Assembly (NCBI GenBank): GCA_000004695.1
Contig: CM000154.2
Location: forward strand, 4,800,001 to 4,864,000
Reading direction: 5' to 3'
Origin: Dictyostelium discoideum
Lineage: Eukaryota
Length of the DNA stretch: 64,000 bases
A program made the translations under genes and the position numbers. Every line of letters starts with the position of its first letter. Within the stretch, counting starts at the first letter, position 1. Below, one piece after another: positions 2,105-35,829 of the stretch. Under the pieces are notes generated by a model. The model was not told where the DNA came from. It saw nothing but the letters and a program-made list of their open reading frames with translations, and did not search any database.

Positions 2105-3917
2105 TTATGATTCAAGTGGTTTATTAACATTATTAAATATTTTTACCTTAAATTCAATTGTTAATTTATCATCTTTAGTTAGCCAACCATTCTCTTGGGT
2201 AATTAAATTTGAATCTATAATATATGATCTTCCCCAACTCCAATCCCATTCCAAATCATCTATGTCTTTTAACTCTATTTTCGATTTTTTTTTTAAAAAA
2301 AAAAAAAATATTAGTTATTTTTTTTAAAATAATTCTTTAATTTAAATTAGTGATATTACTTTGCGTTTTAAATTTTATTGAATTTGTTTCATCCAAAACA
2401 TTAACCAATTTACAAATGAACTCAACATTTGTTCCTTCAATACTTTTACCCATCAAAAATATTGCAATTTTGTTTATTCTTGATAAACCATTTTGATAAA
2501 AAGAAAGATGAAATATATTTTGCAGAATATTGCACAGTGATTGGGATTTTAAAAAATTATTTTGATTAACTTGGAAAGATGGAGAATTTAATAAACTACC
2601 CTTTGGATTTTTTTTAACAATTTTTGAATAGTCTGAAATGATCCATTCGTTTTTGTATTTAAGTGCATTTAATGATAAAAGTTGGTCATTTTGTTTTTGA
2701 AGTTTATCACAAATAATTCTTGATAGTTCAAATTGTTTATTAAGGTTTTCTTGAGTTTTCTCTAATTGTTCAATCTTTTTAACAAGTTTATCACAAATAA
2801 TCTTTGACCGTTCATATTCTTTATAAAGATTTTCTTGGTTTTTCTCTGATTTTTCAATCGTTTTAACTAGTTTATCACAAATAATCTTTGATCTATTCTC
2901 ACCAATAATTCTTGATAATTCAAATTGTTTATTAAGGTTTTCTTGAGTTTTCTCTAATTGTTCAATCTTTTTAACATGTTTATCACAAATAATCTTTGAT
3001 CGATTCTCACAGATAACCTTTGATTGATCATATTCTTTATTAAGGATTTCTTGGTTCTTCTCTGATTGTTCAATCTTTTTAACAAGTTCATCTTGGATAT
3101 TATGTGATTGAATTAATTTTGAAGATAGTTTATCAATTAATATACCCATGAAATATTGATGATTTACATTATTTAAATGATTTTGTAACTCTGATCTCTT
3201 CATTTCAACTTTACAACCATATTCATAATATTTACATTGTATTGTTGAATTATTACAATCATTATTTATATGTGATTGAGTTTGATCTCTTTCAACCATA
3301 ATTGAACAACTTTGTGGACAGCCAATTGGAAATTTTGGACATTCATTATTATGGTTCTCTAATTCCTTTTGAATGGTATCATCACAAGCACAATATTTAC
3401 ATTTAACTAATTTGTAACCACATTGATTTTCATGTTCTTTCAATGAATTTAATCTTAAAACAACATCACATCCATTATGTGAACATTCAACAAATTTAAA
3501 TTTACAATTTTGTATATGTCTATCTAATTGATCTATATTTATTATTTCTTTACAACCATTCTCTTTATCTTTAACCAATGTTATATTTTCATCTAGATTT
3601 GCATAATCAATAAAATGATCATTATTGAATGAATAAATACAATAACATTCTTTTTTACCAAAACCTTGTTCAATTACTAAACATCTTGATAAATCATTGA
3701 TTGAATTTACTTTTGATCTACAAATCATACATTCTTTTTTAATTTTTAATGATTTCTCCCAACATTCTTTACATGCAAAATGACCGGATTTACATTGAAA
3801 AATTGATTTTTTATAAATAAATTCAAAACAAATTGGACATGAATATTTATTTTTCTTTTGTAATGATTCTATATTTAATAAAACATCATTTATTGTAAAT
3901 TTTGAATTTATTGACAT
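2105..3917 (-). CDS. TRAF-like protein: RING finger + TRAF-type zinc fingers + coiled coil + MATH domain; 2 exons (2360-3917, 2105-2274)
   Basis: The N-terminus has a C3HC4 RING pattern ([24 protein letters not shown]) followed by Cys/His-rich TRAF zinc-finger spacing. The ORF stop at 2337 is intron read-through. The donor is caaa|gtaatatc (2358-2359) and the acceptor is atag| (2275-2276). The terminal exon encodes ..[55 protein letters not shown], which matches the C-termini of the paralogs here. Confidence 0.85.
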
Positions 3918-4218
3918 TCTTTGTTATAAAAAATTGAAAAAATAACCAATTAATTAAAAAAAAATTTAAAAATTAATAAAAAAATTAATTGGTAATTAAA
4001 ATAATAGTAACAATTCCAAAAAAAAAAAAAAAAATTTTAAAAAAAACAAACAAAAATATTAGAAATTTTCAATAAAAAAATATTAAAATAAAATATTAAT
4101 AAGTAATAAAAATAATAAAAATAATAATAATCAAAAATAATAATAATAATAAATAATAATAATTAAAAAAAAAAATAAAAAAAAAAAAGATGTGGTTGTG
4201 TAAAAAATGAATTTTGTG

Positions 4219-4470
4219 TGGGTTGTTCAATTTTTAACACAAAAAACCAAAAAAAAGCTATTTTTAGGGATTACTTAATTGTATGTGTTAAAAATATTTT
4301 TTCAATATTTCCAGTTATTATTTCTCTTAAGAGAAATTGTGGGTGTAAAAAATATTTTTTTTTCTGTGTTGTTCAATTTTTAACACAAAAAAGTTTAAAA
4401 AACTAAAAAAGCTATTTTTAGGGATTGCTTAAAATTTTAAGTGTGTTATAAATATTTTTTCAATACTTGA
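4219..4470. repeat. Two tandem copies of a ~110-bp segment, each with a GT-rich hairpin (tgtgtt..gttcaattttt..aacaca), then gctatttttagggatt and gtgtgtt motifs
   Basis: Copy 1 is ~4219-4315 and copy 2 is ~4365-4470, ~85% identical. They lie 300-550 bp upstream of the TRAF-like gene start at 3917. Confidence 0.5.
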
Positions 4471-8226: not shown

Positions 8227-9405
8227 TTAATTGTGATAATCACTAATAACTATTAATTTTTTACCTTTTAATATTGGTACCAAACAAGTTTTATCTAAAA
8301 TTAAATTTGATTCATCAATTATAACCCAATCAAAATCATTTTTATCTTTTAAAAATTTATCTAATGAATTTATATTTGATGATGATAATATAATTCTTGA
8401 TTCATTAATAGTTTTATTAATTAATGATTTTTCTAATTTATTTAAATCCTTTTTTAAAGAAGTAATTTTTGAAATTGATGAATTTATATCAGACTTTTTT
8501 GAATCCAATGTATTATTAGCCAATTCAATTATATCTTGTTTAATTTGTTTAATTGATTTACCACCTTCACTATGTTTGATTTTATACTCTAATGAAATAT
8601 TTTTAATTTCGCTTGGACTACCAATTTTTGTAATTAATTCATTATTATTATTGTTATTATTTTTATCATCATACAAACTATTACAAATGAAATCAATTGA
8701 CTCGTTTGAAGAACTATATACTAATATTTTATTTTTATCATTTGATTTAATTAAATGTTTAATTATATCAGTTATTGTTTTAACTTTACATGTATTATTT
8801 GAATTATTAATTTTTATAATATCTTGATTATTATTAATAATATTATTTTCTAAATCTTTTAAAATTATTTCACTATTTTTAAATTGATCTTTAGTTGTGC
8901 AAATATTATCATTATTATTATCATCTTCGAATAAACTTTTATATTTTTCATAACCATTTACACCATTTAACGATTCTAATGTTTCTTTTAAAATTTTATT
9001 TTGATTTTCATTGAAATTAATTTTATCAATTGAAAATTTAATAAATGAATAATCTTCTTGTACCCATTTATATGGTTGTCCAAATGAACTGAATAAAGTT
9101 GGATCATCACAATCAATTGAAATTATAATTTTATTTGATTTAATTTTATAAATTTCACCAAATAATTGATAATTTATCATTTTGTTTGGTTTTGAACTTT
9201 GAAATCTTACACCAACAGAATCACCAATTTGAAATTCACAATCATTTTCAAATTGTAAATCACCACCATTTTCCATTACAAATTTTAAAAAAACTCTACC
9301 TAATAATCCAGTTGATCTTCCATCAATTAATACATTATTAATTATCATTTGACTATTAATTATTTGATCTCCTTTTTCACCATCAATTGATTGTTCGTTT
9401 TTCAT
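8227..9405 (-). CDS. Degenerate, C-terminally truncated Upf1-like (SF1) helicase-related ORF; possible pseudogene
   Basis: Motif Ia-like KILVYSSSNESIDFI (cf. ILVCAPSNxAVD). Motif II-like FDWVIIDESNLILDKTCLVPILKGKKLIVISDYHN (cf. VIIDEAxQ..LIPL..KKLILVGDxxQL). The Walker A position has decayed: NSNNTCKVKT where GPPGTGKT is expected. The ORF stops immediately after the motif II/III boundary and no motifs III-VI follow. Confidence 0.55.
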   Translation of the reverse strand: MKNEQSIDGEKGDQIINSQMIINNVLIDGRSTGLLGRVFLKFVMENGGDLQFENDCEFQIGDSVGVRFQSSKPNKMINYQLFGEIYKIKSNKIIISIDCDDPTLFSSFGQPYKWVQEDYSFIKFSIDKINFNENQNKILKETLESLNGVNGYEKYKSLFEDDNNNDNICTTKDQFKNSEIILKDLENNIINNNQDIIKINNSNNTCKVKTITDIIKHLIKSNDKNKILVYSSSNESIDFICNSLYDDKNNNNNNNELITKIGSPSEIKNISLEYKIKHSEGGKSIKQIKQDIIELANNTLDSKKSDINSSISKITSLKKDLNKLEKSLINKTINESRIILSSSNINSLDKFLKDKNDFDWVIIDESNLILDKTCLVPILKGKKLIVISDYHN

Positions 9406-9426
9406 TTTTTATATTTTAATTTATTA

Positions 9427-9428
9427 AT

Positions 9429-9526
<98 letters not shown>

Positions 9527-9527
9527 C

Positions 9528-9617
<90 letters not shown>
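9427..9617. repeat. (ATTT)n microsatellite, ~45 units
   Basis: Direct reading. Track ORF 9391-9651 is its translation. Confidence 0.9.
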
Positions 9618-9619
<2 letters not shown>

Positions 9620-9807
9620 TTTGTTTATTTATATATTTTTTAATGTTTTGATTTATTTTTTTTTTTTTTAATGTTTTGATTTATTTTTTTTTTTTCAATG
9701 TTTTAATTTATAAATTTTTTAAAAAAATTTTTTTTTTTAATTCCTATGACGGTAACTCCATTTCATCCAAATACCATCGAAATTTAAATAGACAATACCC
9801 AAATAAT

Positions 9808-9843
<36 letters not shown>

Positions 9844-10277
9844 CCCACTTTTTTTTAACTTGTTTTTTTAAGATTTGTTTTTGCTTGAAATTTTATATAT
9901 CCTTATATTTGGTACATTTTCAATATTTTCTAATGATTTTCTTTTTTTTTTAAAAAAAAAATAAGAGAAAAATTTGCAGCTAAAGAGATATAGCTTTTTG
10001 AATAAATGAAACAATTAATATTATTTTTTAATTTTTTTTTTTTATTTTACAAGATCCCAAAAATAGGTTTATAAATTTTATTACTTACTTGCAAGGTTGA
10101 AAAAAAAAAAAAAAATAAAAAAAATGATTGAGAATTATTAAGAAAATAATTGAAAACTAGTTGAACATTTAAATAGTTTGGAAAGATTTTTTTATTTATT
10201 TTTATATTTTTTTATAAAGTTGTAAAAATAGGGAAATACATGATTTTATCAATTTATGGTTTACAGTTTTTTAAGAT

Positions 10278-10471
10278 TTAAGACTCCAATGGTTCATATT
10301 CTTCATTTAAAATTTTAATATAAATTTCTATTATTAATTTATCATCATTACTTAACCAACCATTTTCTTTATTAATTAAATCAGATAATAAGAATTTTCC
10401 CCATCCCCATCCTTCTGAACTTATAAAAACTAAAATAAAAAATAAAAAAAAAATAATTTATTAGTAATTAA

Positions 10472-10551
<80 letters not shown>

Positions 10552-11798
10552 TTTTTGTATAAATTACCTTTTTTATCTTCTTTTTTTGTAATTGATTTTG
10601 ATTTATCCAAAACATTGACTAATGTAAATGAATATTCTACTTTTAATGAGTTTGGTTCTTCAATGTTATTAACTCTTAAATATAATGAAATGTACTCTTT
10701 ATTTTCATCACCTTTAGGATAAACACAAACTTGAAAAAGGTGAGAGAGTATTGACAACATTGGAGAGGACAATGCTTGACAATTTAATTTTGATTTTGCT
10801 ACACTTGAATAGTTTGAAATGATCCATTTATTTCTATACCCATTTGAACAAATATCCAAAGCCTTTGGAAGAACTTGTTTCTTTAAACATGCATCACTGA
10901 ATTTGATAACTAATAATGACAAATCTTCAATCTTTTTCAAAAGTTCATCATGAGTTTTCTTTGATTGGCCAACTTGATTTGTTAATTTTTCAATTAGAAT
11001 GCCCATGTAATTTTGATGATTCACTCTCTCCAAATGATTTTGTAATTCTGATCTCTTCATCTCAACTTTACAACCTTGTTCAAAATATTTACATGGTATT
11101 TGAGTATTACAACAATCATTTTCAATATGATCGATAATTGATTTCCTTTCAATTTTCACTGAACAACCTTGTGAGCAATCAATTGGAACCATAGGACATG
11201 TCTTATAATGAGTTTCTAATTCCTTCTTTTTAATATCATCCCTTTTACAGAAATCACATGTAACCAATTTGAAACCACATTCATTTTGATGAGATTCTAA
11301 CGAATTCATTCTTAAAATCTTTTCACATCCTTTGAATGAACATGTAACAAATTTATATTGACAATTGATTAAATGAGAATCAATTTGATCAACTTCAATT
11401 TTTTCTTTACAACCATTTTCTTCATCTTTTATTAATTTTCTTTGATTTTGGTCTGAGGCACCATCTGGTGGTGAACAATTTGTTCCACCTTCAACGATTT
11501 GTTCATTGAAAGAGTAAATACAACAACATTCTTTTTTATCAAATGCACGCTCTACCATCAAACATCTTGATAAATCATTATATGAATTCACTACTGATTT
11601 ACAAGTCATACATTCTTTTTTTGTTTCTAATGATTTCTCCCAACATTCTTTACATGCATGATGACCTGATTTACATTGATAAATTTGTTTTTTATAAATA
11701 AATTCAAAACAAATTGGACATGTATATTTATTTTTCTTTTGTAATGATTCTTGATTAAATAAAATATCATTAATTGTAAATTTTATATCAATTGACAT
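10278..11798 (-). CDS. TRAF-like protein (RING + TRAF zinc fingers + MATH); 2 exons; intron carries an (AAT)n microsatellite
   Basis: Same architecture and about 60% identity to gene 2105-3917 at the N-terminus ([33 protein letters not shown]..). The donor is aaaaaag|gtaattta (10566-10567). The track ORF tail YYYYYY.. is read-through of the (ATT)n intron (10472-10549). The terminal exon encodes ..[44 protein letters not shown]. The acceptor is either ttttag| (exon start 10429) or ttcag| (10414); both are in frame. Confidence 0.8.
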
Positions 11799-12170
11799 TT
11801 TTTTACAAAAATTATTAATAAAAAAAAAAAAAAAAATAATAATTATAAAAAATAAAAAATAATAATTATAAAAATAAATAATAAAAGATAATAATAAAAG
11901 AAATTAAAATAAAGAAAATAAAGAAATTAATATAAATAAAATAATAATAAAGAGAATAAAAAAAAAAAAAAAAAAAAAAATTTAAAAATAAATAATTAAT
12001 AATTTTTTTAATTTTAATTTTAATTTTAATAAACCATAAATAATTCTTAAATTGAGATAGAATAAACCAAAAATAAATTTTGGGGGTATGGTGGAGTTGT
12101 TAATGTGGTAAATTATTATTTTTATACATACAAAAAATAAGAAAAACTGATTTTTTTAAATTTATTACTA

Positions 12171-12200
12171 TGTGTGTTCATGTGTGTTTGAGTGTGTTTG
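12171..12200. promoter_or_regulatory. GT-rich G-box-like element (tgtgtgttcatgtgtgtttgagtgtgtttg), ~760 bp upstream of the cysteine proteinase gene
   Basis: Unusual G/T-rich block in otherwise >85% A+T intergenic DNA. Resembles the (T/G)G(T/G)G(T/G)G half-sites bound by G-box binding factor in Dictyostelium developmental promoters (established knowledge). Assigning it to the cprotease promoter is inference. Confidence 0.3.
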
Positions 12201-12490
12201 TAAATTCAACATGTGGTTTATTGGAACTCACACCCTAAAAAAAGTGATTTGAAAAAAAATAAAAAAATAATAATAAAAATAATAAACCAAAATTTTATAA
12301 AATTAAAAGTGATTTAAAAAAAAAGAAAAAAAAAAAAAAAAAAGAAATTATATTTGAACTGATGTAACAATTGATTCATTAAATACAAATAATAGTGATT
12401 CCATTTTCTTTGGTATTATAAAAAATAATAAAAAATAAAAATATTAATAAAACTAACTCAGGTTAAAAAAAATAAAAGAAGAGAAAATAA

Positions 12491-12762
12491 ATTATTTTGT
12501 TTTTTTAACCACCAATGCTTTAATATAGATTCAATCAAAAAGGAATGGGGATTCTATTATGATAAAAAAAAAATAAAACAAAAGAAAATAAAAATATTTT
12601 GTTTTTTTAACCACCAATGCTTTAATATAGATTCAATCAAAAAGGAATGGGGGTTCTATTATGATAAAAAAAAAATTAACCCAAAGAAAATTAAAATATT
12701 TTGTTTTTTTAACCCCCAATGCTTTAATATAGATTCAATCAAAAAGGAATGGGGGTTTTTTT
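12491..12762. repeat. Tandem repeat, ~102-bp unit x ~2.7 copies (..tttgtttttttaaccaccaatgctttaatatagattcaatcaaaaaggaatgggg(a/g)ttctattatgat..)
   Basis: Direct reading: copies start at ~12491, ~12593 and ~12696, with >90% identity. Located 200-470 bp upstream of the cysteine proteinase ATG (12963). Confidence 0.7.
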
Positions 12763-12962
12763 TTGGTTAAAAAAAAAAAAAAAAAAAAAAAATTTTGAAG
12801 TGTTAAATTTTATTTATATTTTTATTTATTTTTATTTTTTTTTATTTTTATTATTTTTGTTTTTAATTTTTTTTTTTTTTAATTAATTTTTTTTTTTTTT
12901 TTCCTTTTTTAATAAATTAATTTTTTTTTTTCTCATTATATTATATATGAAACATTAAAAAA

Positions 12963-13057
12963 ATGAAAGTTATATTATTATTTGTTTTAGCTGTTTTTAC
13001 TGTTTTTGTTTCAAGTAGAGGAATTCCATTAGGTTTGTAATTAACTATTATTTTAGA

Positions 13058-13126
<69 letters not shown>

Positions 13127-14169
13127 TAAAAAATAATAAAAAAAATGTTTTTAACAATTTTTTTTTTTATTTTTTTTTATTTTTATTTTTATTTTTTTAA
13201 AATAATTAAAAGAAGAACAAAGTCAATTCCTTGAATTTCAAGATAAATTCAATAAAAAATATTCACATGAAGAATATTTGGAAAGATTTGAAATTTTTAA
13301 AAGCAATTTAGGAAAAATTGAAGAATTAAATCTAATAGCCATTAATCACAAAGCTGATACTAAATTTGGTGTAAACAAGTTTGCAGATCTTTCCAGTGAC
13401 GAATTTAAAAATTATTATTTAAATAATAAGGAAGCAATATTCACTGATGACCTTCCAGTTGCTGATTATCTTGATGATGAATTCATTAATTCAATTCCAA
13501 CTGCATTTGATTGGAGAACTAGAGGTGCTGTTACACCTGTAAAAAATCAAGGTCAATGTGGTAGTAAGTAATTTTTATATACTATTTTATATATATATTC
13601 TCTCTTATATTATATTAACTAATAAAAATTAATTTTTTAAAAATAATAATAATAATAATAATATCATTTGATAGGTTGTTGGTCATTTTCAACTACTGGT
13701 AATGTTGAGGGACAACATTTCATTAGTCAGAATAAATTAGTTTCATTATCAGAGCAAAACTTGGTAGATTGTGATCATGAGTGTATGGAATATGAAGGTG
13801 AACAAGCTTGTGATGAGGGTTGTAATGGTGGTCTTCAAGTATGTATAAAATAATAATAAAATAAACCAATATAACATACCAATAATTAAATACTGATACT
13901 GATACTAATTAAAAATTAATATTATTATTAGCCAAATGCATATAATTATATCATTAAAAATGGTGGAATTCAAACAGAATCTTCATATCCTTACACTGCT
14001 GAAACAGGTACACAATGTAACTTTAACTCTGCCAATATTGGTGCAAAGATTTCCAATTTTACAATGATCCCAAAGAATGAAACTGTAATGGCTGGGTACA
14101 TCGTTAGTACTGGACCACTCGCAATTGCTGCTGATGCTGTTGAGTAAGTTTTTAAAATTTTAACTTTGA

Positions 14170-14228
<59 letters not shown>

Positions 14229-14596
14229 TTTCAAATCTTCTAATAATTTCTTATTGTTATCTAAAAAAAAAAGGTGGCAATTTTATATTGGTGGTGTATT
14301 TGATATTCCATGTAATCCAAATTCACTTGATCATGGTATTTTAATTGTTGGTTACTCTGCTAAAAATACAATTTTCCGTAAAAATATGCCATATTGGATT
14401 GTAAAGAATTCTTGGGGTGCAGAGTAAGTATTTTAAATTTTAAAATAATAATAATAAAAAAAATAATAATTTAGTTTACTAATAATTAATTTTGTTAAAA
14501 AAAAAAAAAAGTTGGGGAGAACAAGGATACATTTATTTAAGAAGAGGAAAGAATACATGTGGTGTATCAAACTTTGTTTCAACTAGTATAATTTAA
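12963..14596 (+). CDS. Papain-family (C1A) cysteine proteinase, 6 exons
   Basis: Signal peptide [18 protein letters not shown]. An I29 propeptide region (..[17 protein letters not shown]..). The active-site motif QGQCGS|[12 protein letters not shown] is split by an intron (donor ggta|gtaagtaa ~13567, acceptor ..gatag| ~13675). There are His and Asn regions (..[10 protein letters not shown].., ..NSWGA) and a C-terminus [27 protein letters not shown]. Exon 1 is 12963-13032. Introns at 13033-13212 and 14146-14271 carry (AAT)n/(ATT)n. Several track ORFs (13278, 13668, 14170) are exon pieces. Confidence 0.9.
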
Positions 14597-14620
14597 ATTT
14601 ATACCAAATATTTAGTTTAG

Positions 14621-14654
<34 letters not shown>

Positions 14655-14824
14655 ATTTAAAAATAAATAAAATTTTTTATTAAATCTAAAAAAAAAAAAA
14701 AAAAAAAGAAATAGTGTTTGTATATATATGTATATATTATTATATTTATTGTTATTGTTACATTTATTTTAATTATTTAATATAAAAATAATTGGATTTG
14801 TTTTTTTTATTTTTTTTTTTTATT

Positions 14825-16027
14825 TTATGGTAAAACTTGAATTCTAAGACCAATAACTAATTTATCTTCATCAGTTAACCAACCATTTGCAGAATCAACA
14901 TCAACAGTTTTTAAAGTTTTTGGATAACCCCAACCAGAAGTTGCACCACCATTAAAAGTATACTCTTGAATTCTATAAGTTCTATTTTTACGAGAATCTT
15001 GATTATTAAATACAAATGTAAATGAAACTTTTACAGCTGGTTCATTGATACTAACTCTATAGAGGTAAGCAGAGATATTACCTTTATTAGATTCATCATA
15101 ACCATTTGGGTAAAGTGTTAATTTGAATTTATTATTACCAACATCCAAAGGGACTGTACTAATACCTTCATTCACTCTTTTTAATTTATGAGTTGAAAAT
15201 GTTGCGAAAATAATTGAATTTTTAAATCTTGGTAATAGTGATAATTTATTTGAAGCGTCCATTGATAATTGTTCCAATTTAATCACCCTTTCTAAAAGTT
15301 TTTCATATTTATTATTGATTTGGTAGATTTGGTTCTTACATTCAACCAATTCCAATTGTTGGTTATTTATAACTTTGTCCATCTCAAATGAGTGATTCAC
15401 CTTTTCATAATGGTCGGCCAATTCGAATCTTTTGAAATCAATAGACTCATTTTTACTATTATTTAGACAACAATATTTACATTTTACAATTGTAAATTTA
15501 CAATCTTGATCTATGTGCAGTCTTAATTGTTCCCTTGGGAATGATTTTTTACAAGACTCGGATTGAGTGCATTGTATTCTAACTTTTGGACAAACTAAAG
15601 CATGAGCATCCAATTGACCTGGTATCTCCTTATCACAATGTAAACAATACTTTGAACTGAATTTACAATCTATTTTATGTTCGGCAATTTGCTTTAATCT
15701 TAATATTTTATCACATCCTGTGAATGGACATTTTTCAAATCTAAATTGACATTCAACTTGATGTTTCTCTAATGCTTCAACTGTAATTATCTCTTTACAA
15801 CCATTTGATTCATCCCTTATCAATGCTTCATTCATTGATGAATCATCAACATTTACATTTTCAATAAAGAAAAATGAATTTGGACAATAAACTTTTTTTT
15901 TTAAAAACTCATTTTCAATAAATCTATTTCTTGATAATTCATTCATTGAATTAACTGGTGTTCTACAAATCATACATTCTTTTTTATTTAATAATGAATC
16001 TGACCAACATGATTTACATGCTAAATG

Positions 16028-16068
<41 letters not shown>

Positions 16069-16254
16069 TTTATCTTGTGTTATGTATATATATATATTTT
16101 TTTTTTTTTTCAATCCTTACCCATCTCTACATTGAAAAACTTCTTTTTTTGAAGAACTTGAATAATATAAATCAAAACAAATTGGGCATGTAAAATTATC
16201 TGATAGTGATTCATGATCTACTAAAAGTTCATTAATTGAATATTTTACTGTCAT
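14825..16254 (-). CDS. TRAF-like protein (RING + TRAF zinc fingers + MATH); 2 exons (16121-16254, 14825-16028)
   Basis: Exon 1 is MTVKYSINELLVDHESLSDNFTCPICFDLYYSSSSKKEVFQCRDG. The donor is gatgg|gtaagg (16119-16120), with a 92-bp intron, and the acceptor is ttttttag| (16029-16030). Translation continues [26 protein letters not shown].. into ORF 14825-15973. The C-terminal MATH domain ends GWLTDEDKLVIGLRIQVLP*. Confidence 0.85.
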
Positions 16255-16311
16255 TTTATGATTTTTTTTTTAATATATATTTATTTATTTGGAAAAAATT
16301 AGGATATGATG

Positions 16312-16346
<35 letters not shown>

Positions 16347-16557
16347 GTTTTAAAAAAAAAAAATTAAAAAAAAAATAAAAAAATAAAAAAAAACTGATTA
16401 AATTTTTAAGTTAATCTCTCGAAAATATCTTTTTTTTTTCAGTTTCCAAAACAATTATTTTATTTTATTTTTTATTTTTTTTTGCCCAAGTTTTCACACA
16501 CAACAATTTTTTTTTTTTTTTTTTATTTCTGTTCTATTTTTATTTTTATTTTTTTTT

Positions 16558-17206
16558 TTATTGCCCAAATAAAGATTGAAATAATTTTGGAAATAATGAT
16601 TTTTCATTAATTGATAATTGTGAAAACCAAATTTTCATTGAATTAATATCATTTTTATCAATTGGAAATTGTTGTAATGATAAAGCAGTATTCATTTTGA
16701 AATTGAATGAAAAATCAGTATTTTCAGTATCCAATAGAATATAATTTAACATATTATCCTTTAGGATTTGAATACCTTCTTTTTCAATTGAATCACTATA
16801 ACTATTTGAACACATTAAACCTATTGAATAGATTATTTGATTTTTTATAGTTTCATTTGTTAATACACCAATTAAAATCCATAATTTAGTAGCAATCAAT
16901 GTATTATGAGACCAAATCCAACCTAAATAAATTGATAATAATTCTAAACTTAATAATATTGTAAATATTTCTTGATATTCTTGTTTTTGTTCTTGTTGAT
17001 TATTATTACTATTATTTTCAACAATTTCAATTAATTCATCAAGTTTTAAAATTAATGCATTTGAATAATTCTCTAAATTAAATTCATTATTAATTGGTAA
17101 ATTTATACATTGAAAGAATTTTTTAAATTTCCTAGCCTATATATAAAAAATAAAAAATAAAAAATTAATTAGTACAAAGATGTTAAATATTTAAAAAATT
17201 TAAAAC

Positions 17207-17296
<90 letters not shown>

Positions 17297-20200
17297 TACA
17301 ATAATTGAATTATCTTTTAATGATAATAATTTAAAATTTAAAATTGCAATAAATGTTTTTATCAAATAATCACCATCTTTTGATTTAAAAAATAAAGGTA
17401 TAATTGATTGAACGATTAAGAATATATCGATTCTAATTGTTGAATATTCTTTTAATGATTCATAAAGTAATGTTTGAATCGGATAGAATTGTTGTAAAAT
17501 TTGACAAACTGAACATAAAACTTGACATAAAAATAATGATTGTGATTCTTTTATCATTGATAATGAATTTATTATTGAATTTGAAATTTTCGATTTCAAT
17601 AATATTGTACTTATCATTAATTTAAAGAAATTAGATTTAAAATTATCATTACTCTTTATAAATTTACAAATTAATGAAATCATTGAAAGAAAACTCTTAT
17701 GTAATGGTTGTGTTGTTGAGTTTGTTGTAGTTGTAGTACTAGTTGTTGTTGTAGTTGTTGATGTTGTAATAATTGAATGACTTAATAAAAGACGTTCAAC
17801 AATTGAATAAAATAATTTTTTCACCCAAATTGTTTCATTACCACCATTTTCTTTCCATGATTCTAATGATAATGATTTATATACAGGTTCAATTGAATTT
17901 GAATCAAATGATGATTGAATTTTTGATAATTGTTCATCAATAAATTTATATGTTAAATGTTGACTCTTATCAATTGGTTTTGATTTTGGTTTTGATTTTG
18001 GTTTTGGTTTTGGTAGTTGTGATTGTTTTTTTACTGTTGTTGTTTGTTGTGGTAGTTGTGGTGGTTGTGGTGGTTGTTTTTGTTGAGTAATAAGTGGTGG
18101 TAAAGAATCAAATAATTTATTTCTTTTTTCATTTGGTTGAGAAGTTTGTATTGCAGTACTACTCTTTTCAATTTCTGTATCTGATAATTTTCTTTTATTA
18201 TTTTTACTTGGTGATTGTATTGTTGATTTTGGTGGTGGTAAAGTTGTAGTGATGGTTGTAGGTGTAGGTGTGGGTATTGGTGTTGGTATTGGTGTTGGTA
18301 TTGGTGTTGGTATTGGTTTAGCAGCTTTTATCTTATTTTCTAAATTCTTTTCAGCCAATTTTTGCTGAAGAGGTTGTTTTTTATTCTTTTCTGGTGATGG
18401 ACTATTAATTGTTGTTTCAAATATACCAGGTGAAATTGGTGAAAATACTGAAAAATCTGATGAAACTGCATTCAACACTGAGTAAGGATCACGTGTTATT
18501 TGGTTATTTAATGATGATGATGATGATGATGATGATGACGATGGTGGTGTAAGTATAATTGGTGTTGTTTCAAAATTAGTTGGGGTTGTAACTATATCTG
18601 TTGCCTTGTTTGTTGTTGGCGTTGTTGTAGTTGAATTAGAAATTATTTCTGATGTTGGTGTTGCTGGAATTGATATTGATATTGGTATTGGTGTTGGTGT
18701 TGTTGTTGGATTTGGTGTTGTTGGTGTTGTTGTTGGTGTTGTTGGTGTTGTTGGTGTTGGATTTGAAATTGTTTCAGTTGATATTGGTGTAGGTGTTGAA
18801 GTGGTGGTAGCATTAGGTATTTTAGTAGTATTGTTTGTTGGTAAATTTAATGTTTTAGTAGTTTTAGAAATTGTTGATTTTTTAGGTATTGTTTTTTTAG
18901 CAGCACTAGGTTGAGGTTTAGTAATTGGTGGTGGTGGTGTAAATACCTCAAGTTCAATTGATTTAATTTCTTTAATTTCTTTATCAATTTCCTTATCAAT
19001 TTCCTTTTCAAATACTTGATCCTCTTTTAATTTTCTCTCATTTTCCAATTTCTCTTTTTCCTTTTGTTTTTCATTCTCTAATTGTTTTTGAATTTCAATA
19101 TCTCTTTCTTTTTCAATATCTCTCTCTTTTTCAATCAATCTTTCTTTTTCTTTTTGTTGTTCTAGCTTTTCTTTTTCCAATCTCTCTTTATCTAATTTTT
19201 CTTTTTCTAATCTTTCTTTTTGTTGTTCTTTTTCCAACTTTTCTTTTTCTTTTTGAAACCTTTCTCTCTCTAATCTTTCTTTTTCTAATCTTTCTTTTTC
19301 TAATCTTTCTTTCTCTAATCTTTCTTTTTGTAATCTTTCTTTTTCAAATCTTTCTTTTTCAATTCTTTCTTTTTCCTTTTGTAACCTTTCTCTCTCTAAC
19401 TTTTCTTTTTCTAACTTTTCTTTTTCTAACCTCTCTTTTTCTAATTTTTCTTTTTCCTTTTGTGATCTTTCTCTCTCTAACCTTTCTTTTTCTAATCTTT
19501 CTTTTTCTAATCTTTCTTTTTCTAATCTTTCTTTTTCTAATCTTTCTTTTTCTAATCTTTCTTTTTCTAATCTTTCTTTTTCTAGTCTTTCTTTTTCTAA
19601 TTTTTCTTTTTCAAATTGTTCTTGTTTTGTTTTTTCAATTATTTCCATTTGTTTTTGTTTGATAGTTAACATTTCATCAATTTCAAATAAATTACTACCT
19701 ATATCATCATCCTCACTACCAAATCCTGGAATATCGTTATCATCTGATTCTGTTTCTGTTTCTGGTTCAGACTCTGAATCCGAATCATCGCTTTCTTCAT
19801 CAGATTCTTTTTCACTTTTATCATTATCCTTCATTAAAATATCTTTTGTAGTATCATTTTCTAAAATTGATATTTGTTGTTGTGGTGATGTTATAGTTGT
19901 TGTTGCTGCTGTTATTGTTGGTGACGGTGGTAAAATTGTTTTTGTGGTTGTTGTTGTTATGGTTGGGGGTGAGGTGGTTTTAAAAATTGGTGCATTTATA
20001 GTGGTGTTTTTCTTTTGTGGTTGTATTGTTTGAATAATTGGTGTTAGTGGTGATGTTGTTGTTGTTAAAATTGGTGGTGATGTTGTTTTTGTTGTTATAA
20101 TTGGTGGTGGTGGTGTTGTTGTTATTGTTGTTGTTGTTGTTGTTGTTTTTATAATTGGTGGTGGTGTTGTTTTTATAATTGGTGGTGGTAGTGATGGTGT

Positions 20201-35306: not shown

Positions 35307-35829
35307 AAAAAATATTAAAAAAATAAAAAATAATAAATAAATAATAATCTAAAAAAATAAATCAAAAAAATTAATTTTTTATTACTTTAAGATTATCAAT
35401 CAAAACCCTAAAGTGTTTTGTTTTGTTTTTTTTTTTAATTTTTTTTTTTTATTTTTATTTTTATTTTTTATCTTTTCCCCCCTCGATTTAGGATATTTTT
35501 TTATTTTTATTTTAATTTTTATTTTATTTTTTTTTTATTTTTTATTTTTTTCGTGTGTTTGTGCGCTTATGTGGTTTTATTAAAAAAAAAAAAAAAATTT
35601 CAATTTTTTTGAATTTTTAAGATAAACAAAAATAAAATAACCAATATAAACCATTAATTAAAAAAAAAAAAAGAAGAAAGAAAAGAAAAGGAATAGGGAT
35701 ATTAATAATAAAAACACATAATATAATAAACAATACATAACATATACATATATACACCTCATCCCATATACATATATACATATATACCTACATACACACA
35801 CACACAATAAAATAAATATAAATTAAAGA

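Follow-up and report, generated by a model that had tools for sequence, protein, structure and literature searches.

That cAMP-inducible genes of Dictyostelium have G-rich elements upstream is textbook knowledge, and the G-box binding factor (GBF) is said, in work by Hjorth and colleagues from 1990 and by Schnitzler and colleagues from 1994, to require two half-sites lying close together. The published GBF half-site reads (T/G)G(T/G)G(T/G)G(T/G) (PMC2257962). The factor, GbfA, was isolated on the G-rich motifs of the cysteine proteinase gene cprB (CP2, or pst-cathepsin) and is needed for the induction of cprB by cAMP (PMC6598861). The initial annotation of the locus described here took as its premise that GBF sites were first defined on a Dictyostelium cysteine proteinase promoter, and this premise holds, with cprB/CP2 and not cprA as the gene concerned (PMC6598861). 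Like cprA, cprB is a cAMP-inducible, prestalk-enriched cysteine proteinase gene of equal developmental timing, and the G-boxes of cprB, like the candidate G-boxes of cprA, take the form of half-site heptamers in several copies a few hundred bp upstream of the gene. The identity between the two proteins we take to be about 42–46%. Unlike the GbfA-bound promoter of cprB, the cprA promoter has putative sites, and its proximal core combines one half-site with conserved motifs that are not G-boxes. We found no paper in the accessible literature linking cprA to GBF dependence. A second described system, the divergent sigN genes of D. discoideum, resembles the present locus in that close pairs of GBF-type sites lie in a short spacer and are proposed to serve both genes (PMC2257962). 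The gene families differ from those discussed here, however, and the modules described below are asymmetric, with one near each gene.

The CP1–DG17 gene pair was cloned and analysed in 1985–87 and is among the first developmentally regulated Dictyostelium gene pairs to have been cloned; the papers of Pears (1985) and of Driscoll and Williams (1987) reportedly noted short G-rich elements upstream of CP1. The locus of the present study is the same one (Pears et al., 1985, NAR 13:8853; Driscoll & Williams, 1987, MCB 7:4482), whereas the footprint across species and the copy-number variation that we describe draw on later assemblies. We analysed a 64-kb stretch of D. discoideum DNA (the window), to which all positions refer. 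The gene cprA, encoding the 343-residue cysteine proteinase 1 (CP1), occupies 12963–14596 on the plus strand in six exons (12963–13032, 13213–13563, 13675–13838, 13932–14143, 14274–14423, and 14512–14596), and its spliced translation matches P04988 / XP_635417 (D. discoideum AX4) exactly. The downstream gene had been annotated correctly as a cysteine proteinase, and the accompanying proposal to compare the locus with cprA is circular since the gene here is cprA itself. DG17 (zfaA), a RING/TRAF/MATH protein of 460 residues, lies on the minus strand at 10278–11798 (exons 10568–11798 and 10278–10429), and joining its two exons gives a translation that agrees exactly with P11467, "RING finger protein DG17". 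This divergent gene on the other side of the spacer was missing from the initial annotation. Among the GenBank entries from the 1980s, CAA26255 (CP1) matches at 99%, and AAA33192 (DG17) falls into the same 90% cluster.

The start codons at 11798 (DG17, minus strand) and 12963 (cprA) face away from each other across a spacer of 1164 bp (11799–12962) with 14% G+C. It had been described as about 90% A+T; it is indeed A+T-rich, the figure being 86%. This is the arrangement of a divergent promoter, with co-regulation of the two genes taken from the title of Driscoll & Williams (1987), which speaks of CP1 and DG17 as co-regulated, as cited in a review (PMC5122030). The stretch 11799–12962 is the CP1–DG17 intergenic region, shared by two developmental genes. 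According to the same review, growing cells do not express cprA, extracellular cAMP induces it, its transcript peaks by 10–12 h at about 1% of cellular mRNA, and the gene is prestalk-enriched (PMC5122030). The developmental regulation that the initial annotation presupposed for the proteinase gene is on record as strong and cAMP-inducible, and the elements of the spacer sit upstream of a cAMP-induced gene, as expected of GBF-responsive elements. We consider it probable, at roughly 70%, that the spacer is a shared control region of cprA and DG17 made of two conserved cis-regulatory modules read by GbfA and a second factor, in which the tandem repeat represents an amplification of the second module.

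For comparison, nine assemblies with the orthologous locus were fetched by exact-protein look-up. They comprise a D. discoideum assembly of the same lineage (L001), two divergent D. discoideum isolates (L004 and L006), two strains of D. cf. discoideum (L003 and L005), and one assembly each of D. firmibasis (L002), D. citrinum (L007), D. dimigraforme (L008), and D. purpureum (L009).

We scanned the window for the half-site consensus KGKGKGK, merging overlapping matches into blocks and using shuffled sequences as the null. The 64 kb contain 66 overlapping matches against 31 ± 5.7 in the shuffles, and these merge into 37 blocks, six of which fall within the spacer, compared with 0.67 predicted from the average over the window. 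The spacer is the only stretch in the window with at least four merged blocks per 1164 bp; with the tandem repeat collapsed to one copy it still holds three to four blocks, and the rest of the window nowhere has four. The half-site scan proposed with the initial annotation accordingly places the highest match density of the 64 kb in the spacer. Perfect half-sites start at 12081, 12171, 12181, 12648, 12712 (minus strand), and 12750. Neither the first repeat copy, which reads TGGGGAT, nor the G/T-rich block at 35550 contains a strict match. As for close pairs, the second GT block carries half-sites at 12171 and 12181, 3 bp apart, and the ancestral single-copy core has one strict half-site. A scan for G/T composition by itself returned 86 overlapping intervals; almost all are runs with a triplet period, such as GTT or GGT repeats, of coding-like character. 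We dropped composition as a criterion, as such triplet runs dominate and it does not discriminate. The suspicion that elements of this kind might be scattered broadly and randomly over intergenic DNA is correct for G/T-richness, which is common, but not for the strict half-sites, whose density peaks in the spacer. What makes the GT blocks notable is the strict half-site match and their conservation, not their composition.

The module nearer DG17 is rich in GT and CA and spans 12078–12235, where it carries three perfect G-box half-sites. Both GT blocks were found where they had been annotated, the first at 12082–12108 (GGGGGTATGGTGGAGTTGTTAATGTGG; 14 G, 9 T, 4 A, and no C) and the second at 12171–12200 (TGTGTGTTCATGTGTGTTTGAGTGTGTTTG). 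In its slightly larger extent on the plus strand (12078–12109, TTTTGGGGGTATGGTGGAGTTGTTAATGTGGT), the first block holds the half-site TGGGGGT at 12081–12087. The second block (12170–12200, plus strand) contains TGTGTGT twice (12171–12177 and 12181–12187), separated by 3 bp, together with a partial third copy. A further element, CATGTGGTTTATTGGAACTCACACCC at 12210–12235, is an inverted GT/CA pair of the form TGTGG...CACACC and was missing from the initial annotation. The two GT blocks lie 280–400 bp from the ATG of DG17 and 760–880 bp from that of cprA.

The first GT block is kept in the D. discoideum complex, although 6 bp are deleted from it in L004 and L006, and L003 has lost most of it; its counterpart in D. 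dimigraforme reads TTCGGGGTATAG...TTTTGGTGGTTA. Of the second block, L004 and L006 have an identical copy, L005 a shortened one, and L003 a diverged one, and D. dimigraforme has the equivalent TGTGGGTTGTGGGTGTGT at 384 bp from the ATG of its DG17 orthologue, compared with 373 bp in AX4. The inverted pair CATGTGGTTTATTGGAACTCACACCC is identical in L004–L006, near-identical in L003, and takes the form TTGTGGTGTATTTGATCACACATC in D. dimigraforme. At the cprA locus of D. firmibasis there is no DG17, the intergenic region measures 404 bp, and the distal module is absent. D. firmibasis thus lacks both DG17 and the distal module and keeps cprA, which indicates that cprA persists with the proximal module alone. 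In D. citrinum, DG17 is a truncated relic beside cprA; a distal GT stretch is present there (3496–3535 of L007), but given the relic state of DG17 it may or may not be homologous to the AX4 blocks. A distal cluster occurs at the loci with an intact DG17, which gives a comparative hint that it belongs with this gene and not with cprA. In a search for a relocated DG17 in D. firmibasis, the best homologue (P0134, 59% identity) was found beside a Got1/Sft2-family gene; it probably corresponds to a different TRAF paralogue and so does not bear on whether the GT blocks travel with DG17.

The module nearer cprA is a core of about 60 bp in which TAACCAC...GATTCAATCAA...GGAATGGGGGTT is followed by TGAAGTGTTAAA. 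In all loci except that of D. purpureum the layout is TAACCAC, a gap of 0–6 nt, TTTAATATAGATTCAATCAA, a gap of 4 nt, GGAATGGGGGTTCTATTAT, an A-run, and TGAAGTGTTAAA. The last of these elements (12796–12807, plus strand) is followed closely by the T-rich run in front of cprA and is invariant among the loci with the footprint; in D. firmibasis and D. dimigraforme this element, as TGAAGTGTT, forms the right arm of the palindrome AACACTTTGAAGTGTT. The core is present in the wild strains of D. discoideum, in D. cf. discoideum, and in D. firmibasis, D. citrinum, and D. dimigraforme, and the columns TAACC-C, GATT-AA-CA, and GGA are invariant across ten aligned sequences. The G-run of the repeat unit, also picked out in the initial annotation, is conserved across species as well. 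Wherever the strict match survives, the G-run is found 203–250 bp ahead of the cprA start codon; in D. citrinum a G-to-T change falls on a degenerate position (TGTGGGT) and the KGKGKGK match is retained, and in D. dimigraforme there is a near-match only (GTGGGGTT).

BLASTN between the intergenic regions gave E-values inflated by A+T richness and was replaced by counts of 9-mers with at least three G/C shared between AX4 and another species, evaluated against a block-shuffled null. D. firmibasis shares 12 such 9-mers with AX4, D. citrinum nine, and D. dimigraforme four, against null means of 0.07, 0.94, and 0.53, respectively. The shared 9-mers of the proximal module are GATTCAATC, TGGGGGTTCTATT, TTTAACCAC, and TTGAAGTGTTA, and the sole one outside it is CCATTTTCT at 12401–12409, shared with D. 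citrinum. The core hence behaves as a conserved footprint, kept between species at a comparable distance from the gene in non-coding DNA that is otherwise unalignable. In D. purpureum, where the orthology of the proteinase is unclear, the footprint was not detectable.

The window carries this core three times, within the tandem repeat of about 102 bp that the initial annotation had pointed out. Tandem Repeats Finder places the array at 12465–12794 on the plus strand, as 3.2 copies of a 102-bp unit that match at 90% and carry 0% indels; with a score of 534 it ranks above all other tandem arrays in the window. Three units stand in register at 12472–12573, 12574–12675, and 12676–12777 (plus strand) and differ pairwise at 10–16 of 102 positions without indels. 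The motif ggaatgggg had been ascribed to each copy, and it does occur in all of them, as GGAATGGGG at 12542, 12644, and 12746. The first core copy (12506–12561, TAACCACCAATGCTTTAATATAGATTCAATCAAAAAGGAATGGGGATTCTATTATG) has a half-site broken by the G-run TGGGGAT. The second (12608–12663), with the half-site TGGGGGT at 12648–12654, is nearest to the single copy of the wild strains. The third (12710–12765) carries TGGGGGT at 12750–12756 and has a diverged 3′ end that reads GTTTTTTTTTGG; an A-to-C change turns part of this copy into AACCCCC, which makes a second, inverted half-site at 12712–12718, 31 bp from TGGGGGT. All three copies are on the plus strand. A 24-nt stretch of the repeat core occurs at three sites in the window, all within the array, with none expected in shuffles. 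A dispersed repeat or transposon was rejected as an explanation, the core being limited to the array in the window and to the orthologous position in the relatives.

The suggestion that copy number might be polymorphic proved apt, with three core copies in the window, two in L001, and one in each of L002–L008, although the step from three to two could be an assembly issue. Being head-to-tail copies whose number differs between strains, the array is a variable-number tandem repeat. Over 9.7 kb, L001 (GCA_054883475.1) shows zero substitutions relative to the window and differs in the lengths of three A-runs and in the exact lack of 12676–12777. The initial annotation suggested that the arrangement with the threefold repeat may be a developmental enhancer. 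This does not hold for the ancestral state, because only one copy is present in the remaining strains and species, and the repeats are consequently not part of the ancestral design but an expansion in the AX4 lineage. Judged from the assemblies compared, the repeat is a laboratory-lineage amplification of a conserved single-copy element. The boundaries of the units fall in the A-runs that flank the core, and slippage or unequal exchange between these A-runs is the most likely origin. Nor is the array brand new, since its units differ at 10–16 of 102 positions; either the L001 stock has recently lost a unit or one of the two assemblies is wrong. Promoter minisatellites and duplicated enhancers are similar to the array in their head-to-tail, motif-bearing units, in their variability between close stocks, and in breakpoints within A-runs. 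In contrast to them, the cprA array is very short (two to three units) and has no known consequence for expression.

Elsewhere in the window, a DG17 paralogue (2337–3917, minus strand) has half-sites at 4215–4223 and 4338–4346, 300–430 bp upstream of its ATG, which lie inside a direct repeat of about 125 bp. The upstream region of this paralogue resembles the distal module in composition only, the comparison scoring 33 where the null gave 24 ± 3.3 and reached 35 at most. A similar GT-rich block had been noted upstream of the SFT2 homologue; it is present at 35550–35574 and is conserved in D. firmibasis, but it does not contain a strict half-site in AX4. A search of the whole window against Rfam gave nothing at the gathering score, and a tRNA search found none. 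We discarded an ncRNA gene in the spacer, for which MIR319 hits on both strands reached 21 bits compared with a gathering score of 54; they reflect a chance hairpin in which the G-run pairs with the AACCCCC variant. Likewise, AACCATAA at 12033 bears only a loose likeness to the upstream element of Dictyostelium ncRNAs, with CC instead of CCC, and the site reads TCCATAA or TTCATAA in other strains.

In what we see as the most likely mechanism for the shared control region, extracellular cAMP would activate GbfA once aggregation is over, and GbfA would bind the G/T-rich half-sites of the spacer. At least one additional factor would read the invariant TAACCAC and GATTCAATCAA motifs alongside GbfA, and the two together would switch on both cprA and DG17. 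Extra copies of the core may supply more putative binding sites, presumably without being required. Several observations run against a GBF model: the first GT block tolerates a 6-bp deletion in wild strains, both blocks have diverged in L003, the single-copy core has one strict half-site, and D. dimigraforme has the near-match only.

These observations bear on how the labour is divided between the two genes and between the two factors. The distal blocks (12078–12235) might serve DG17 and contribute little or nothing to cprA, which would then be driven by the proximal core alone, and the initial annotation would have credited the blocks to the wrong gene; we regard this as a serious possibility, though one that falls short of an even chance. 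The cluster lies 280–440 bp from the DG17 ATG compared with 730–880 bp from that of cprA, and wherever a DG17 gene is present a GT/CA-rich cluster is retained at nearly the same distance from this ATG, even though the blocks of L003 have diverged. D. firmibasis, without DG17 or the GT blocks, has the proximal core and an intact cprA; D. citrinum retains only the truncated relic; and the DG17 paralogue likewise has G-box half-sites 300–430 bp upstream of its ATG. On the other hand, D. firmibasis may have lost the blocks incidentally, in the very rearrangement that removed DG17, enhancers work at 0.8 kb without difficulty, and the co-regulation of CP1 and DG17 reported in the title of Driscoll & Williams (1987) fits shared elements. 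The proximal core, for its part, may have another factor as its main reader, because the invariant TAACCAC and GATTCAATCAA are not G-boxes. A stronger version of this idea, in which a non-GBF factor reads the core mainly through TAACCAC and/or the odd-centred palindrome GATTCAATC and the G-run is a secondary contact, appears doubtful to us. It would account for the invariance of TAACC-C and GATT-AA-CA in ten sequences beside a G-run that varies in length and loses its strict match in D. dimigraforme, for the single half-site per core, and for the presence of TTTAACCAC and GATTCAATC among the shared 9-mers. The minus strand of GATTCAATC reads TTGATTGAATC, with two adjacent TTGA motifs. TTGA presumably resembles STAT sites and AACC Myb sites, but no known Dictyostelium factor was matched to TAACCAC or GATTCAATC, and the position of the G-run is conserved, with G/T substitutions that obey the K-degenerate consensus.

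The remaining doubts concern the repeat and the nature of the sequence as such. That the difference between three and two copies is an assembly error, with an extra unit (12676–12777) in the 2005 reference or a collapse in the newer assembly, seems unlikely. It is true that L001 matches the window over 9.7 kb except for the three A-run lengths and exactly one 102-bp unit, that the unusual variants AACCCCC, TTAACCC, and GTTTTTTTTTGG all fall within the missing unit, and that a divergence of about 10% is odd for a duplication younger than a lineage free of SNPs. However, the third unit is in perfect register and without indels, which is not how poor-quality read ends look; a single Sanger read can span an array of 300 bp; and the first two units are equally diverged from each other (11 of 102), as expected if the array of three copies is old and the L001 stock recently lost a unit by deletion between A-runs. 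Even if one assembly were wrong, two copies would still stand against the single copy of wild strains and sister species. Finally, the GT blocks and the repeat could lack any regulatory role and be neutral DNA of low complexity, the former as tracts akin to TG microsatellites and the latter as a minisatellite. The second GT block is (TG)n-like, the first has indels in wild strains, stocks differ in copy number without a known phenotype, and G/T-rich stretches are common across the window. Purely neutral DNA is nevertheless very improbable because of the cross-species footprint: the distal blocks and the core stay alignable between species amid unalignable intergenic DNA, the half-site density of the spacer is the maximum of the window, and both flanking genes, cprA and DG17, are strongly regulated. 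We therefore keep the shared control region with two modules as the preferred reading. On this reading the spacer is a genuine developmental promoter of a known kind, a G-box type promoter of a divergent gene pair with a short promoter minisatellite.

The locus was cloned long ago and G-rich promoter elements are familiar in this organism, and in this respect the finding is real but ordinary, with little importance beyond annotation. New are the footprint that the proximal promoter of cprA shows across species (TAACCAC, GATTCAATCAA, the G-run, and TGAAGTGTTAAA), which could guide a study of the minimal promoter or of motifs and their factors, the laboratory-lineage repeat with its variable copy number (3, 2, or 1), and the apparent association of the distal cluster with DG17. 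The difference in copy number between near-identical assemblies is relevant to users of the cprA promoter and to comparisons of expression between strains. As a long shot, the two- to threefold amplification of the core may be a real cis-regulatory mutation of the NC4/AX lineage, still variable between laboratory stocks, that raises or advances the expression of cprA, already at about 1% of mRNA by 10–12 h in laboratory strains, relative to wild isolates. If so, the locus would be a compact natural case of enhancer dosage evolving by slippage, and there would be a hidden difference in cprA expression between commonly used strains.

DG17 is not a stable neighbour of cprA across species. At the D. 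firmibasis cprA locus, its place is taken by an unrelated gene of 422 aa (L002 2229-3596), for which no Pfam match was found, and at the D. citrinum locus only fragments matching DG17 residues 265-460 are left (L007 2826-3317), apparently a truncated pseudogene. One D. cf. discoideum assembly carries an extra cysteine proteinase gene in tandem, directly downstream of cprA (L003 5834-7130). Its predicted product (P0028) comprises 246 aa, is shorter than CprA and shares 69% identity with it; this second gene is absent from AX4 and the remaining fetched loci. Within the spacer shared by cprA and DG17, the element AAAGTGATTT(G/A)AAAAAAA occurs twice between the distal and proximal modules (12241-12258 and 12306-12323), spaced by 65 bp, and the first copy is kept in every locus of the D. 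discoideum complex.

The window also contains a TRAF/DG17-like paralogue of DG17 on the minus strand (2337-3917). Upstream of its ORF lies a direct repeat of ~125 bp (4195-4280 and 4340-4432, spanning 4195-4432), both copies of which include GT-rich elements, with matches to the GBF half-site at 4215-4223 and 4338-4346. This repeat region shares only composition, and no sequence, with the distal module of DG17. The coding ORF itself contains tandem repeats with units of 84 and 108 bp (2700-3092; 2.3-2.8 copies, 82-87% matches), implying that the predicted protein would contain a repeated segment.

The SFT2 homologue (ATG at ~35830) is preceded by a GT-rich block (35550-35574) that is kept in D. 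firmibasis, where the counterpart (L010 2290-2312), reading GTGTGTTTG..CTTATGTGG, resides ~270 bp upstream of a Got1/Sft2-family gene at the same distance and in the same orientation as in AX4. The nearby TCGATTTAGGATATTTTTTT is likewise conserved between the two. A strict GBF half-site is missing from the AX4 block; the D. firmibasis counterpart has one (ACACACA).

As for the assemblies themselves, a run of 19 C in the AX4 reference is immediately followed by 100 N (459-577), the latter being an assembly gap. Two isolates labelled D. discoideum (L004 and L006) show just ~86-95% identity to AX4 over 8600-18700, coding parts included. This divergence is larger than we would expect for a single species, a hint of cryptic lineages.
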